From the UHGV virus genome UHGV-1616770: a DNA stretch of 13,110 nucleotides. The stretch is one strand, 5' to 3'. Every line of letters begins with the position of its first letter. Positions within the stretch are counted from its first letter, which is position 1. The stretch is from a virus. Below the pieces are notes generated by a model. The model did no database searches. It had not been told where the DNA came from and saw nothing but the letters and a program-made list of their open reading frames with translations. Positions 6,623 to 12,516 of this stretch are shown here, piece after piece. Position numbers and translations under genes: made by a program.

Positions 6623-7924
6623 TTAAATCCGAAGTGATGTGACTCTTCCGGTCGGTTTGACAATAGGGAATTGCTTAACGATGAAATAACCTCCGGCATC
6701 ATTCGGGTGATCATTGCCAGATTTTTTATCAGGTTCCCCCTTCTCATCCCAGACCTGTTGCTCCAGAGATTCGGCATATAACGGGCAACGCTTCACATTA
6801 ACTTTATAGCGACGCTCACCATTGGCATTGCAGAACATTGCATTCATTGAGTTAACGCGATCTTTTACTGGCGGGTTCGAGCTGTTCACCACAACGTTAA
6901 AACCAGCCTGCTTAAGCTGGGCTATATCCGTCGTACTTGCGTTACTTGATTTTCTGGAATCCCCGGAAGCATCTGGATAAATATAAATTTCCCTCACTTT
7001 CCGGTAATCATTCCCATCATACAGCCAGAAGCGTTCTTTAATGATGCGGATCATATCCGGCGTATCGTAGGCATTGATGATTTCAGTTACCGCACATGGA
7101 AGCCCCAAACGCAGCACATGGACGATTCCCGCCATCTTTCCAACGTTAAAATCCATCCCAATATAAATCGGCTCCCCTGGCTGCTCCACTTCTTCGCAAT
7201 TATTCAGTTTCCGGTCAAACTGATGGTAAACAGTACCACTTGTCAGGTTAGTAAACTGTCCTCGAAGATAGGCTTTAATCAGCTCTGGAGGGTATGATTC
7301 AAGAAGCGAAGGAATGTAATCTGCTGGCAGGTTCTTTTCATTATCGAAAGTAGATGCCTGCACCAGACCATACAGTGAGGCCAGCTCTGTTTTTTCACGC
7401 ACGGCTTTAACAAACTGCTCGTAGACAAATTTGAATCCTTCCGGCGTGGTTGTAACGTCAATACCGTTGCGAAGTCCATCAATCTTATAACGCATACGCG
7501 CAATTATCTTGCGCCACGCCGTTCTGGCTTTTTCCTTCGGCAAAATGTCCAGTTCATCCACCAACGCATTACCAATTTTGAAACCGACGATCGTTTGTGG
7601 CTTCTCCATCGATCTGCAGATAGTGGTTCCCCGATACTGGCGTCCGTAATAAAAGTGAACCTCTTTATTTCCCTCATTAATTTTTACGTTCAATCCCCAG
7701 TCAGCAGCAACTTCTTCCACTGTAGGGTAAAAAATATCGCGAATTTGGGGATACGTTGGCGCAAAATATCCCTGATTTATACCAGGATGTTCCCAAATCC
7801 CCTTGCATATGCCACCACACCCAATCCATGTTTTACCCGAGCCAAAACCAGCGACATAGGCTTTAAATTTGTGGGGCATTGAAAGAAATCGCGCCTGAGG
7901 CACATTAAGCGTCGGAGAGATCAT
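6623..7924 (-). CDS. Terminase large subunit (TerL)
   Basis: Walker A motif GFGSGKT near the N-terminus and a hydrophobic-DE Walker B-like segment (ALVDELD). The ORF-track start at 7933 is GTG; I prefer ATG 7924..7922, which sits 8 nt after an AAGGAG RBS (ATG 7930 is a possible alternative), overlapping the terS 3' end. TAA stop at 6625..6623. Confidence 0.9.
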   Translation of the reverse strand: MISPTLNVPQARFLSMPHKFKAYVAGFGSGKTWIGCGGICKGIWEHPGINQGYFAPTYPQIRDIFYPTVEEVAADWGLNVKINEGNKEVHFYYGRQYRGTTICRSMEKPQTIVGFKIGNALVDELDILPKEKARTAWRKIIARMRYKIDGLRNGIDVTTTPEGFKFVYEQFVKAVREKTELASLYGLVQASTFDNEKNLPADYIPSLLESYPPELIKAYLRGQFTNLTSGTVYHQFDRKLNNCEEVEQPGEPIYIGMDFNVGKMAGIVHVLRLGLPCAVTEIINAYDTPDMIRIIKERFWLYDGNDYRKVREIYIYPDASGDSRKSSNASTTDIAQLKQAGFNVVVNSSNPPVKDRVNSMNAMFCNANGERRYKVNVKRCPLYAESLEQQVWDEKGEPDKKSGNDHPNDAGGYFIVKQFPIVKPTGRVTSLRI

Positions 7925-8999
7925 CTTCATCACTCCTTACTCTGGCATCAACCACATTAATATTGATCGCCACAGGTTGGGGATGTTCATTATCTTCCAC
8001 CGTTTCGATCTCTTTGCACAGCTTCTGGTTTTCCATTCTGCGCCGTTCAATTTCCAGTTCCTGTAGCCGCTTATCTGCACATAAAGCCCCACCAGCAGCA
8101 AGCAAACGCAACAATTCACGCCGGGCGGCAGCCTTATCCTCCAGCAGGATCTCAACACCAAATTTTCCGAGCTTTGCCCCTGCATATAATTGCCGCGCTT
8201 CCCCATCAAGCAGAGTGGTATCAGCCATATAAAGCTGCCCCGTTCCCTCACCGCAGCACTTCGGGCAGTCCGGATTGGGTATGGCGTTATCAACAAAGCC
8301 AAGGCCACCATATTCCGGCTCGGGTTTGCCATCTCTGGAGGCCTGCGACGCTGCCTTATCGAATTCTGCTATATCGCGCCACTGGTAGTGATGATTCTCG
8401 CCCCAGCAATAACGGCAGTTAACACGGCGAAATTGTGCCAACTGATTGGGGTCGGCCTGGACAATGGCCATCAACTGACTCACCAGTAAATCCAGGTCTG
8501 CGGTATAGCGTTTCTGGTACTGATTGCGGAAGTAGCTGATAGCACGAAAAACCTTAGGATTTCTTAGGAGCTGGCTGGCGGTTACGTAGGCCGCATTCCC
8601 CTCTGACTCGTATCCTGCCAGGCGATATGCCTCAACGAGTTTTTTCCCCTGGGCAACCAGCATTGCGAATTTCGCCTGCTGGTCAGAAACGCCGAATTCA
8701 TCGGGACAGAACGAAATTTCTTCCGCATCGCCCTCATTCAGGTACGCATCGGATACTGGCTTTTTTTCCTGAGATTTTCCGTTCCGCTTTTGTGCAGTCT
8801 GCGCAGATTTTTTCTGCGCACTTTTTTGCGCAGTTTTGCGCATTTCTGTCTGCGCATTTTTCGGAGGTTTTTTGATGTAACGACGGGCTGTTGCGTAATT
8901 CAGTCCCCTGGCTTCACACCATGCCACCGGAGATATACCGGAGCGGGTGTATTCAGCAATATACTCCTGCTGCAACGCCCCCCAGTCCGGTCTGCTCAT
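7905..8999 (-). CDS. Terminase small subunit (TerS), unusually long multi-domain form
   Basis: 364-aa ORF immediately upstream of TerL. It has an N-terminal HTH-like segment, a basic K/A/Q-repeat linker, a segment resembling the terminase small-subunit HTH (…AYRLAGYESEGNAAYVTASQLLRNPKVFRAI…), a Cys cluster (C-x2-C…HH…C-x2-CC) and a C-terminal coiled-coil-like tail. ATG at 8999..8997, AGGA RBS. Confidence 0.7.
   Translation of the reverse strand: MSRPDWGALQQEYIAEYTRSGISPVAWCEARGLNYATARRYIKKPPKNAQTEMRKTAQKSAQKKSAQTAQKRNGKSQEKKPVSDAYLNEGDAEEISFCPDEFGVSDQQAKFAMLVAQGKKLVEAYRLAGYESEGNAAYVTASQLLRNPKVFRAISYFRNQYQKRYTADLDLLVSQLMAIVQADPNQLAQFRRVNCRYCWGENHHYQWRDIAEFDKAASQASRDGKPEPEYGGLGFVDNAIPNPDCPKCCGEGTGQLYMADTTLLDGEARQLYAGAKLGKFGVEILLEDKAAARRELLRLLAAGGALCADKRLQELEIERRRMENQKLCKEIETVEDNEHPQPVAININVVDARVRSDEDDLSDA
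8791..8856. repeat. Cluster of palindromic TGCGCA hexamers interleaved with T/A tracts inside the terS 5' region
   Basis: Plus-strand TGCGCA at 8800, 8815, 8827, 8837 and 8851, plus TGTGCA at 8791, each flanked by T-runs, with 9-15 bp spacing. On the coding strand these encode the Ala-Gln-Lys repeat linker of TerS. Confidence 0.5.
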
Positions 9000-9002
9000 C
9001 AG

Positions 9003-9254
9003 TTAGTCCTGATTTTTATCCACCCTGAGTAGTTCGCGCAGGGCAAAGGCATCCCCTTTTCTGGCAAGCTTAAACAATGCCGCCCGTAGCTCGGCTTCAC
9101 CTTTCGCTCTGCCCTTACGGATGGACGCGTAAAAATTTGTCATTGCTTCCCGATTTTCTTTCAGTCGGTTCAGATCAACATCCAGAACGTCAGCGATTTG
9201 TTGTGCAGTCATCCGGCACGCTGCCAGAGACTCGACTTTCGAATACGGAATCAT
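9003..9254 (-). CDS. Small helix-turn-helix-like protein upstream of terS (packaging-associated or regulatory; function unknown)
   Basis: 83-aa ORF with ATG at 9254..9252 and a GGGGGTGA RBS; its stop at 9005..9003 is 3 nt before the terS ATG. The sequence is predicted helical and basic C-terminally (…MTAQQIADVLDVDLNRLK…). It overlaps the 3' end of the upstream reading frame by 65 nt. Confidence 0.5.
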   Translation of the reverse strand: MIPYSKVESLAACRMTAQQIADVLDVDLNRLKENREAMTNFYASIRKGRAKGEAELRAALFKLARKGDAFALRELLRVDKNQD

Positions 9255-9726
9255 TTGTCACCCCCATTAATATGCAGGGTGTCTTCTTCCTGTATTTTTC
9301 GTGAAGGATTTTTACTGCAGCGTTGTTCCAGGTGACCTGATGATGAATGCGTTTATGGCTGGCGCCCATCAGTGAGATTTTTACGCACGACGGCGCATAC
9401 ATGACGGAATAAAAACTTTTAACGTAGGTCCCGGAATCCAGATACAGCTCGGTCATTCCGCCGCTGTTTTTCTGCGTCTGTTTCTGCCCTAACTGGACAG
9501 CACCGATCGTCATAAACAATTCACCACGGCGACCGAGATTCGTGTACGTATTCACATCCTCGTTAATGCGCCCCATGAATGAGAACGGTCGATCAACCGA
9601 ACAGATAAAGCTGTTCATTGCCTTGCGTTTCACCCACGAAGCATGGCCGCCATTGTCACCAAGAAAATCCCCGCCCTGCGACATAGCGATGGAAAGCACG
9701 GGCATTGATTCGTAATACGCCAGCAT
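9190..9726 (-). CDS. C-terminal portion of the GT-A-like gene (same reading frame, downstream of the in-frame amber)
   Basis: 178 codons open in the same frame as 9769..10122 (10122 minus 9726 is 396, a multiple of 3). There is no Shine-Dalgarno before the ATG at 9726, so independent translation is doubtful. TGA stop at 9192..9190. Confidence 0.4.
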   Translation of the reverse strand: MLAYYESMPVLSIAMSQGGDFLGDNGGHASWVKRKAMNSFICSVDRPFSFMGRINEDVNTYTNLGRRGELFMTIGAVQLGQKQTQKNSGGMTELYLDSGTYVKSFYSVMYAPSCVKISLMGASHKRIHHQVTWNNAAVKILHEKYRKKTPCILMGVTNDSVFESRVSGSVPDDCTTNR

Positions 9727-9768
9727 TTCAGAAAGGATCGCATCCAGTTTCCTTATCGGGAAATAGGC

Positions 9769-10122
9769 CTAGTCATAGTTGCGATCCACCCGAAACTGGA
9801 ACTCGTGATAATCATCATCGAGCTGAATGAAGTATTTACACCCGACCAGTTTTGCCAGGTCGAAACAGGCATTACGGGCGTAAAAAATTGAGCGGCGGTC
9901 ACCAAAATTATCGGCTTCGTCAAAACGACTGGCAATATCGGCTTTGGAAAATACCAGCACCTGTTCACCAAATTCAGCCATGTACTGATGCCGTGTCTTA
10001 TCTTCATCATCAACAACGATAAAAATTTTCCCGGTATAGCCAGCACGACGCAACGTCCGGTAAGTCAGAACTTTGTCCGGTCGCCCGTGAGTCAGAATAA
10101 AGGCGCAAAAATCATCACGCAT
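9769..10122 (-). CDS. GT-A-fold glycosyltransferase-like protein, N-terminal portion ending at an in-frame amber codon
   Basis: Strong GGAGGAGG RBS and ATG at 10122..10120 overlapping the ParB-like gene stop (ATGCGTGA). The N-terminus has a strand-helix-strand pattern (FCAFILTHGRPDKVLTYRTLRRAGYTGKIFIVVDDEDK) and a later DxD-like motif (YFIQLDDDYHEF), resembling nucleotide-sugar transferases. The frame ends at TAG (plus 9769..9771 reads CTA). Confidence 0.55.
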   Translation of the reverse strand: MRDDFCAFILTHGRPDKVLTYRTLRRAGYTGKIFIVVDDEDKTRHQYMAEFGEQVLVFSKADIASRFDEADNFGDRRSIFYARNACFDLAKLVGCKYFIQLDDDYHEFQFRVDRNYD

Positions 10123-10903
10123 ATTCCTCCTCCCCGCTATGCATGATCGCCACCATGCGCTGCGTCATTCGGACAAATCCATTTTCAATAGCCTGCTGAT
10201 AATCAATGATCACCAGCGCCGACTCCTCGAAAAGGCACTGAATTTCAGCGGGGGCATGAGCGTAATAGTCCGCAATTCTGCTGAAATTAAACACCGTGTG
10301 ACGTTCTGCCGCACACAGGAGGAATTTCTCAATATCAGGATCAAGGGACGCCGAACGTATCCGGCTGATCAGCTCCTGAGTTTTCGTATCGTCGTACAGT
10401 TCACTGATATCCGGTTTACCGCCCGACGGCTCATAAACAGGCGTATCAATTTTCGTCGTATACGGCTCCTCCTTATTTCCTGTACCGGGCAAAACATCCG
10501 TCAACAGTTCATCAATTTCTGTCGGGCCGAAGCCTGTCAGGGAGACATCAAAATCAGCATTGATTAGGTCCGACAGCTCCATCCGCAACAGATCTTCATC
10601 CCAGCCAGCATTCATCGGTAGGCGATTATCTGCCAGGCGGTACGCCTTTTTCTGCTCATCCGTCAGGCCAGACAGAACAATGACCGGAACAGAATCCATT
10701 TTGAGCATTTCAGCCGCCATAACACGACCGTGACCCGCAATAATTTCGCCCTTTTCGTCAATCAGCACCGGATTAGTCCAGCCGAATTGCTTAATACTTT
10801 CTACCAGTTGTGCCACCTGCTCAGTACTGTGCGTCCTGGCGTTGTGCGCATACGGTGACAATTCTTGTAATGGGCGATAGACTATCTTTAATTTCTCGCT
10901 CAT
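10115..10903 (-). CDS. ParB-like nuclease domain (ParB/Srx fold) protein
   Basis: 262-aa ORF whose N-terminal domain matches the ParB N-terminal pattern (…YRPLQELSPYAHNARTHS…QLVESIKQFGWTNPVLID…EIIAGHGRVMAA…). ATG at 10903..10901 with an AAGG RBS; the stop overlaps the start of the downstream gene. Confidence 0.8.
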   Translation of the reverse strand: MSEKLKIVYRPLQELSPYAHNARTHSTEQVAQLVESIKQFGWTNPVLIDEKGEIIAGHGRVMAAEMLKMDSVPVIVLSGLTDEQKKAYRLADNRLPMNAGWDEDLLRMELSDLINADFDVSLTGFGPTEIDELLTDVLPGTGNKEEPYTTKIDTPVYEPSGGKPDISELYDDTKTQELISRIRSASLDPDIEKFLLCAAERHTVFNFSRIADYYAHAPAEIQCLFEESALVIIDYQQAIENGFVRMTQRMVAIMHSGEEEYA

Positions 10904-11040: not shown

Positions 11041-12498
11041 TTAGGAGCGCCAAAAAAAACCTGAAAACAATATAATAACAGGATAAATTTCAAGGCGACC
11101 AAGAATCATAGCTATGCACATTAAATATTTTGCAATGTCATTAAGCACTCCGAATGACGATGCAGTAGCCCCAAAACCTAATCCCATATTATTAATACAT
11201 GCAGCCACTGTTGCAAATGATGTAAGAAAATCATATCCCATACCATTTAACACCAGTATAAAAAACACCGTGAAGAGAGTATAAAGAAAAAAGAAACTCC
11301 ATACAGACCTCATTACACGATCTGTAACTATCTTCCCTCCTACATTTACACTCAACAACGCTCTGGGATGAGAAAGCTGATTTATCTCGTGTTTGCTTTG
11401 TTTGAAAAGTATAAGAAATCGAAGTGACTTAATTCCACCACAAGTTGAACCTATACATCCCCCAAAGAAACTTGACGACAGCAAAAACACTATCGTGTGC
11501 GTGGGCCAGTTTGCATAATCCTGCGTAGCTAAACCATTATCAGTGAGCATGGAGCTGGCAAGAAAAAACGAATGAATAAAACTTCCATGCAAGTCATACA
11601 TACCTATATGCCAGACCTGGAAAGAGGTAACAATGATCACCCCTAAGGCTATTAACAGAAAGAAACGAAGTTCAATATCTCTGATTAAAGGTTTTATCGT
11701 TTTCCTGCTAATAACAATATACCAAAGAGTGAAGTTGAAAGCCGATAGCAGGGAAAAAGAACCAGCCACCAGCTCAACCAAATAGTTATTAAAATATCCG
11801 ATACTCTCGCTATGAGTTGAGAAACCACCAAGCGAAACTGTGGAAATCCCGTGACAAATAGCATCAAACAAAGGCATTCCTGCAAGTCTATAACAGACAA
11901 TACAAGCAATACCTAATAAAGAATAAGTTATCCACAGTGTCCGTGACGTATCGGCCAGGCGGGGAGTGAGTTTGTCATCCTTAAATGGCCCCGGCATTTC
12001 TGACTGATAAAGCTTTGCACCACCAATACCCAATAATGGCAATACAGCAACCGCCAGAACAATAACTCCTAAACCACCTATAAAATTTAACTGTGACCGA
12101 TAGTACAAATATGCCCGAGGTAATGAACTAACATCATCAATTACAGTTGCTCCTGTTGTTGTTATTCCAGAAACCCCTTCAAACAGAGCATCAATGAACG
12201 TTAAATTAAGTTCTGAGTCAATCCATAAAGGGAATGCACTAATAACAGAAAACAAAATCCAAAACATTACAATTATAATAAACCCATCACGGGTACGTAA
12301 TTGAATGCCAGATTTCTTAGTTGTATACCACGCTCCGCCACCAATGCAAAAAAATATAACGAAAGTTATAAAGAAAACGAACAGGCTTTTTTCTTTATAA
12401 AACAATGCTACAACCATTGGTGGCAACATTGAAAGACTATAGAGCCAAACCAGGAACCCACACATATGAGTAACAACTCTTACATGAGATGTATTCAT
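11041..12498 (-). CDS. trkG: TrkH/TrkG-family potassium uptake protein (prophage moron)
   Basis: Polytopic membrane protein; from ATG 12498..12496 (MNTSHVRVVTHMCGFLVW…) it is 485 aa, which I recognise as E. coli Rac-prophage TrkG. The ORF-track start at 12516 is TTG and likely an over-extension. The gene is visibly more AT-rich than its flanks. TAA stop at 11043..11041. Confidence 0.9.
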   Translation of the reverse strand: MNTSHVRVVTHMCGFLVWLYSLSMLPPMVVALFYKEKSLFVFFITFVIFFCIGGGAWYTTKKSGIQLRTRDGFIIIVMFWILFSVISAFPLWIDSELNLTFIDALFEGVSGITTTGATVIDDVSSLPRAYLYYRSQLNFIGGLGVIVLAVAVLPLLGIGGAKLYQSEMPGPFKDDKLTPRLADTSRTLWITYSLLGIACIVCYRLAGMPLFDAICHGISTVSLGGFSTHSESIGYFNNYLVELVAGSFSLLSAFNFTLWYIVISRKTIKPLIRDIELRFFLLIALGVIIVTSFQVWHIGMYDLHGSFIHSFFLASSMLTDNGLATQDYANWPTHTIVFLLSSSFFGGCIGSTCGGIKSLRFLILFKQSKHEINQLSHPRALLSVNVGGKIVTDRVMRSVWSFFFLYTLFTVFFILVLNGMGYDFLTSFATVAACINNMGLGFGATASSFGVLNDIAKYLMCIAMILGRLEIYPVIILFSGFFWRS

Positions 12499-12516
12499 AT
12501 CTAAATATTCTTTCAA

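Follow-up and report, generated by a model that had tools for sequence, protein, structure and literature searches.

Amber hotspots at CCAGG sites are known from lacI, where they are attributed to deamination of 5-methylcytosine to thymine (PMC12606429), and amber markers of lambda cI located in CTAGG, studied by Lieb, led to the discovery of very-short-patch repair (PMC2715241). This Vsr-dependent repair, which works in the direction CTAGG to CCAGG, counteracts the deamination only partly (PMC2715241). With respect to the enzymes involved here, TET-associated glycosyltransferases (TAGTs) are common as solitary genes (288 of 753 phages; PMC13216743), point mutants of the T4 glucosyltransferase evade a glycosylase-based defence (PMC13216743), and the glycosyltransferase domain of eukaryotic GREB1 is reportedly related to phage TAGTs (PMC7968844). 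In this study, a prophage TAGT gene interrupted by a single amber codon was compared with its relatives. The comparison indicates that the gene has probably been inactivated by a recurrent and recent C-to-T change at a Dcm hotspot, leaving a null product of 117 amino acids.

The window (the whole stretch of 13,110 nucleotides that was analysed, UHGV virus genome UHGV-1616770) is the late region of a Rac-like lambdoid prophage of E. coli and displays the gene order lysis genes, trkG, a ParB_N/YnaK-like gene, the TAGT gene, a small open reading frame (ORF), terS, terL, portal, MuF, scaffold, and capsid (Table 1). As in the Rac prophage of K-12, the potassium transporter gene trkG (11041-12516, minus strand) is a moron flanked by the lysis genes on one side and the ParB/TAGT/terminase block on the other; in K-12, everything from mid-ynaK through the head genes has been lost. 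The K-12 Rac gene ydaY was considered as an N-terminal fragment of the TAGT gene and was ruled out, as this region is wholly absent from K-12 Rac.

Table 1. Features of the interrupted TAGT locus and its neighbours, in window coordinates
Feature	Position	Strand	Remarks
ParB_N/YnaK-like gene, 262 aa, upstream	10115..10903	-	Its stop overlaps the TAGT start
Shine-Dalgarno sequence GGGGAGGAGG of the true start 10122	10126..10135	-	Within the 3' end of the ParB_N gene
TAGT-family glycosyltransferase gene, pseudogene in the window	9190..10122	-	Intact: 310 codons plus stop; PF20691, PHROG 842
N-terminal ORF, 117 aa, nucleotide-sugar-binding half including DDD	9769..10122	-	AF2 confident at residues 1-150
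DDD (DxD-type) motif, codons 102-104	9811..9819	-	Invariant in the 32-homologue alignment
Former Dcm site (intact alleles CCAGG, window CTAGG)	9768..9772	-	Mutated base is the internal C
Amber codon TAG, codon 118	9769..9771	-	CAG (Gln) in relatives; C to T at gene nt 352
Open frame 3' of the TAG, codons 119-310 plus TGA	9190..9768	-	37 of 71 invariant family positions
In-frame ATG, codon 133, without Shine-Dalgarno sequence	9724..9726	-	Anti-Shine-Dalgarno -3.1 kcal/mol
I140M (nt 420) and A142V (nt 425), private to the window lineage	9698..9705	-	3' of the stop, flanking invariant P141
Small ORF, 83 aa (RefSeq: 69 aa), downstream	9003..9254	-	Own Shine-Dalgarno sequence; overlaps the TAGT 3' end
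Small terminase subunit gene, next late-operon gene	7905..8999	-	

The frame running from 10122 to 9190 on the minus strand comprises 311 codons and, on translation, closes with a TGA (9192..9190); the TAG at 9771..9769, which reads CTA on the plus strand and is followed by a G, is its only internal stop, and no further lesion was found in the frame. The ORFs of 117 aa (9769..10122) and 178 aa (9190..9726) share this frame. A preliminary description of the locus had proposed that one in-frame amber codon splits a GT-A-like gene just after a DxD-like motif, with a G as the next base, and these observations are borne out, the motif being a DDD that lies 14 codons 5' of the stop. Its figure of 178 open codons is correct when counted from the ATG at 9726, while the TAG itself is followed by 192 sense codons in open frame. 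This ATG, in frame and 42 nt past the TAG, had also been described as having no Shine-Dalgarno sequence, in agreement with anti-Shine-Dalgarno duplex energies of -12.1 kcal/mol at the true start 10122, -3.1 at 9726, and -1.5 at a lineage-specific ATG at 9705; by the same measure, no in-frame restart codon near the TAG is preceded by a Shine-Dalgarno sequence.

For profile searches, the protein with Gln restored at codon 118 was used. The matches to the Pfam TAGT family PF20691 (E 9.4e-36, 124 bits against a cut-off of 27.5) and to PHROG 842 (beta-glucosyl-HMC-alpha-glucosyltransferase; E 1.3e-103, profile positions 1-269 of 270), together with the invariant DDD, lend support to the earlier GT-A-like assignment. 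Along the 205 positions of the Pfam profile, the N-terminal fragment covers 4-98 and the C-terminal fragment 122-205, and since the two match complementary parts, the stop divides what is a single domain. Among 32 aligned homologues (59-82% identity to the first sequence of the alignment), 71 positions are invariant, 37 of which fall after the stop, and codon 118 lies in a variable loop. The AlphaFold model (AF2) is confident at residues 1-150 and poor beyond (pLDDT 66.5 overall), and Foldseek searches against the PDB returned GT-A matches to SpsA, glycogenin, and SunS that are weak (TM 0.3-0.4) owing to the poor model of the C-terminal half. No TET/JBP dioxygenase, 5hmC, alpha- or beta-GT, or other GT gene was found among the neighbours in the 13-kb window or the related loci, so that the gene counts as a "solitary" TAGT. 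Judged by its sequence, it is a solitary TAGT-family glycosyltransferase of GT-A fold. The E. coli alleles additionally display a C-terminal extension of about 22 aa (window 9190-9255, overlapping the start of the next ORF), which is missing from the 284-290 aa homologues of other Enterobacteriaceae.

Comparison with relatives reveals that the normal state of this locus is one functional gene and that the window carries a null allele. In four relatives (L001-L004), the 933-nt gene is uninterrupted and codon 118 reads CAG, as it does in representatives of Shigella flexneri and E. ruysiae, and the CAG 30-mer around the site is matched exactly in 289 complete E. coli genomes; the TAG 30-mer, in either of two common flanking contexts, occurs in 0 of 5,426 complete genomes. 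The preliminary description had left it to the orthologues whether TAG or a sense codon occupies this position, and they answer with the sense codon CAG throughout this set. It had also named two outcomes that would speak for a genuine boundary, namely two conserved genes or homologues ending at this point; both are absent, as the Enterobacteriaceae homologues are single proteins of about 284-310 aa that continue past codon 118. A naturally split two-gene enzyme was rejected on the strength of these single proteins and of the missing Shine-Dalgarno sequence at ATG133. None of 80 IMG/VR alleles (39 distinct) has an internal stop. The pN/pS ratio of intact alleles is 0.125 over the whole gene and 0.057 over codons 119-310, and the intact gene is under purifying selection. 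In the protein collection, the intact protein is found on at least 2,492 contigs over three alleles, two of these on at least 1,000 each, versus 19 and 16 contigs for the two 117-aa products. The TAG allele accounts for under about 1% of occurrences, and other null forms (frameshifts, truncations) are present on 3-12 contigs each.

The consequence of the stop can be read from what each part of the protein retains. The 117-aa fragment keeps the nucleotide-sugar-binding half with its DDD motif; as the conserved C-terminal half is lost, it should be inactive, and on the family comparison it almost certainly is. The downstream half lacks a ribosome-binding site, and there is nothing to indicate that it is translated. 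The next ORF has its own Shine-Dalgarno sequence, so that the lost translational coupling should matter little. Three changes 3' of the stop, I140M, A142V, and one synonymous change, are private to the window lineage, and no complete genome was found with I140M and A142V on a CAG allele. These private replacements exceed the expectation from the ratio of 0.057 and, in very small numbers, point towards relaxed constraint.

With regard to the reality of the allele, the exact 117-aa product is present on 19 contigs of the protein collection (indexed in 34 blocks, at least 24 contigs read), and its carriers include the NCTC genome GCA_900448925.1 and gut metagenome and SRA assemblies from unrelated samples. 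The TAG was found in ten of ten fetched loci, with the frame otherwise open, and four of them (L006, L008, L011, and L012) differ from the window by one mismatch each over 10-11 kb. Searches of GTDB species representatives, JGI metagenome contigs, IMG/VR, and INPHARED phages did not recover the allele, and TAG carriers are therefore known solely through the exact-protein index. In the NCTC copy (L005), the ParB gene additionally contains an IS21-family element and terL one of the IS66 family (L005 5409-7351 and 10653-13069), and this prophage copy is decaying in several places. A further peculiarity of the window lies at 8348, where the coding strand has T versus G in all 14 compared loci (L001-L014), giving A218S in terS; this T is the only difference between the window and four metagenome/SRA contigs over 10-11 kb.

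The sequence context of the stop suggests how it came about. In intact alleles, codon 118 is part of the Dcm site CCAGG, a feature which the preliminary description had missed: the context is GACCAGGCC in intact alleles and GACTAGGCC in the window, that is, TATGAC[C]AGGCCT versus TATGAC[T]AGGCCT. The change is a C-to-T transition at the internal C of CCWGG, giving CTWGG, and it is the sole difference from the CAG twins described below in that part of the gene. A nonsense codon can arise in the gene by 106 different substitutions, and only two of them are products of Dcm deamination, nt 352 being one of the two. Truncations before the four non-Dcm CAG codons (100, 109, 149, and 262) are absent from the protein collection. 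A recurrence was likewise expected for the second Dcm-linked target, TGG265 to TAG (nt 794), whose 264-aa product is absent from the collection for the two commonest alleles. Among the 80 unbiased IMG/VR alleles, two of six Dcm-target positions are polymorphic in the expected C-to-T direction, an excess that is not significant. On every feature that can be read from the sequence, the mutation fits the Dcm hotspot class, and from this context we infer deamination as its cause. The dcm-vsr genes are present in most E. coli. In the proposed mechanism, Dcm would methylate the internal C of CCAGG at codon 118, and the resulting 5-methylcytosine would deaminate spontaneously to thymine, converting CCAGG to CTAGG and Gln118 from CAG to TAG. 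Very-short-patch repair would prevent this only in part; the change would recur independently on at least four haplotypes, and the amber allele would persist briefly each time. As each event would be young, no second lesion would be expected yet in the downstream frame.

This recurrence, likewise missed in the preliminary description, is illustrated by the nucleotide haplotypes. The TAG was found on four of them, each with a near-identical CAG twin in complete genomes. The L007 group differs from its CAG counterpart (L015, GPEC657) solely at nt 352 across -787..+1237, and L014 differs from its own (L018, AR_0077) by two differences in 2,981 nt. For L005 and its CAG twin L019, seven differences were counted in 2,711 nt, nt 352 being the only one within the gene, and the window group departs from L001 (CAG) within the gene at nt 352, 420, 425, and 780. 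Overall, the TAG haplotypes are separated from their CAG twins by 0-6 other substitutions over about 3 kb, and about 100 substitutions in the neighbouring 1.4 kb separate the prophage backgrounds of the TAG haplotypes. When 18 sequences were put through a four-gamete test over 1.63 kb, nt 352 conflicted with 24 of 27 informative sites and the others with 0-4, making nt 352 the only strongly homoplastic site in the region. At the protein level, a 117-aa product with an L003-type N-terminus on 16 contigs suggests a fifth TAG background. From this haplotype pattern, the same change appears to have arisen independently on at least four prophage haplotypes. The preliminary description had offered a very recent nonsense mutation as one of its options, and this option gains support from the CAG in orthologues and from the short distance of 0-6 substitutions to the CAG twins.

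Several other explanations were weighed against recurrent mutation. The TAG might have originated once and then been passed on when Rac-like phages residing in or infecting the same cell underwent homologous recombination or short-patch conversion. Such prophages are mosaic, and the backgrounds are near-identical over gene nt 1-594, so that no other trace would be expected of a short tract in which nt 352 alone is transferred; the haplotype pattern would equally be produced by conversion around nt 352 in tracts shorter than about 230-400 bp. Against this, at least three separate tracts would be needed, each confined to ~193-419/594, and no other site in the 1.6-kb region displays comparable homoplasy. 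Furthermore, Vsr repair of the T:G mismatch in a CTAGG/CCAGG heteroduplex restores C (PMC2715241), and conversion should consequently favour CAG over TAG, which together leave a single origin unlikely. A different view holds that the mutation recurs since loss is selected, for example if the product marks DNA or protein for a modification-dependent defence, with the Dcm site as merely the easiest route to a null. The other truncated and frameshifted products on 3-12 contigs each and the T4 glucosyltransferase point mutants that escape glycosylase-based defence (PMC13216743) are in line with such selection. We nevertheless regard it as quite improbable given that nulls are rare, with the TAG in 0 of 5,426 complete genomes and 0 of 80 IMG/VR alleles, and intact proteins on at least 2,492 contigs versus 19 and 16 for the 117-aa products, and given the strong purifying selection on intact alleles. 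As a long shot, we also put forward that the CCAGG/CTAGG codon might serve the glycosyltransferase gene as a mutational ON/OFF toggle, turned off at an elevated rate by Dcm deamination and on by Vsr-biased correction of T:G replication errors at CTAGG. If true, a standing small fraction of null prophages would survive hosts whose defences target glycosyl modification, and the codon would represent a methylation-based analogue of phase variation.

The remaining explanations concern whether the stop is functional or real. A functional stop, with full-length protein obtained by amber suppression or read-through, or with two cooperating polypeptides obtained by re-initiation at ATG133, would be compatible with the downstream frame being open in every TAG allele examined and with an in-frame ATG following 42 nt past the TAG. 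The stop is not conserved, however, with CAG in the 289 exact-match complete genomes and TAG in none; it splits a single Pfam domain, no nearby in-frame restart codon has a Shine-Dalgarno sequence, and I140M, A142V, and the synonymous change near invariant P141 point towards relaxed constraint. A search for tRNA genes, including suppressor tRNAs, found none in the 13-kb window. This makes a functional stop extremely improbable, and the suppressor or read-through option of the preliminary description, for an allele at under about 1% of occurrences, finds no support. The same description had considered a sequencing error, and Dcm motifs are indeed known trouble spots for some long-read basecallers. 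This option is rejected, since the allele is present in many independent assemblies, namely the NCTC genome and, from unrelated samples, several assemblies of metagenome or SRA data, of which four are one mismatch from the window over 10-11 kb, and the TAG is found in 0 of 5,426 complete genomes, many of which are long-read based. A nanopore methylation artefact in particular was discarded, as mixed independent assemblies carry the allele and complete genomes are without it, and the probability of any sequencing or assembly artefact at the methylated motif is close to negligible.

The neighbouring genes present some observations of their own. The small ORF at 9003-9254 (minus strand) matches positions 145-218 of 319 of a "terminase small subunit" PHROG (E 2.5e-22), and its start differs between gene callers (83 versus 69 aa), the 83-aa start having the better Shine-Dalgarno sequence. 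Upstream, near-identical prophages in RefSeq are annotated only with a 258-nt pseudogene, "ynaK, incomplete, missing C-terminus", the remainder being unannotated (L001 7647-7904). In contrast to this model, the ParB_N ORF of the window (10115-10903, minus strand) is intact at 262 aa, and the RefSeq pseudogene is apparently an artefact of annotation for which the truncated YnaK of K-12 (87 aa) served as the model. A GGA repeat at about 10123-10135 of the window is polymorphic in length (0, 3, or 6 extra bases; in L007 and L014 at gene position -11). The repeat belongs to the 3' end of the ParB gene and is at the same time the Shine-Dalgarno sequence of the glycosyltransferase gene; ParB is accordingly 262 or 264 aa long, and the length of the Shine-Dalgarno run varies.

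Taken together, the annotation of this locus is settled as a pseudogene allele of a conserved and selected prophage gene, as opposed to a split gene, a recoding site, or an assembly error. The locus is also a clear case, from natural populations, of the 5-methylcytosine amber hotspot originally described in lacI. In phylogenies of prophages, such Dcm hotspot sites can be mistaken for shared ancestry or for recombination. Moreover, TAG and CAG prophage pairs that are one base apart would constitute ready isogenic material for a search for the substrate of solitary TAGTs.

In comparison with described enzymes, the gene resembles the T2/T6 beta-glucosyl-HMC-alpha-glucosyltransferase (TAGT) in belonging to the same HMM family, in its N-terminal half of GT-A type, and in its invariant DDD. 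The T-even TAGT enzymes act on alpha-glucosyl-5hmC DNA supplied by a dedicated pathway, whereas the window has no such pathway genes and carries a null allele. The likeness to eukaryotic GREB1 consists in the name "GREB1-related protein" that RefSeq gives to the intact prophage orthologue; GREB1 is a multidomain protein of 1,949 aa that O-GlcNAcylates a protein substrate (PMC7968844), while the prophage enzyme is known here from its sequence. As for the mutation, the lambda cI amber markers (Lieb; cited in PMC2715241) share with the window an amber codon in a lambdoid phage gene, the CTAGG/CCAGG context, and the Vsr-biased correction to CCAGG, and they differ in being laboratory markers, as opposed to a natural allele read from sequence. 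The mutation also resembles the lacI amber hotspots (Coulondre, Miller, Farabaugh, and Gilbert 1978; summarised in PMC12606429), in which the second C of CCAGG likewise becomes T, an in-frame CAG likewise becomes TAG, and one site likewise recurs far above other nonsense targets. lacI is a chromosomal gene known from laboratory mutant collections, whereas the present case comes from natural populations and a prophage late gene; unlike in lacI, its recurrence is deduced from haplotypes and is not a measured rate, and its second Dcm target (W265) was not seen mutated. The amber allele is thus ordinary gene decay by a known process with no special coding trick, and the new part is its natural and apparently recurrent occurrence in a prophage glycosyltransferase gene.
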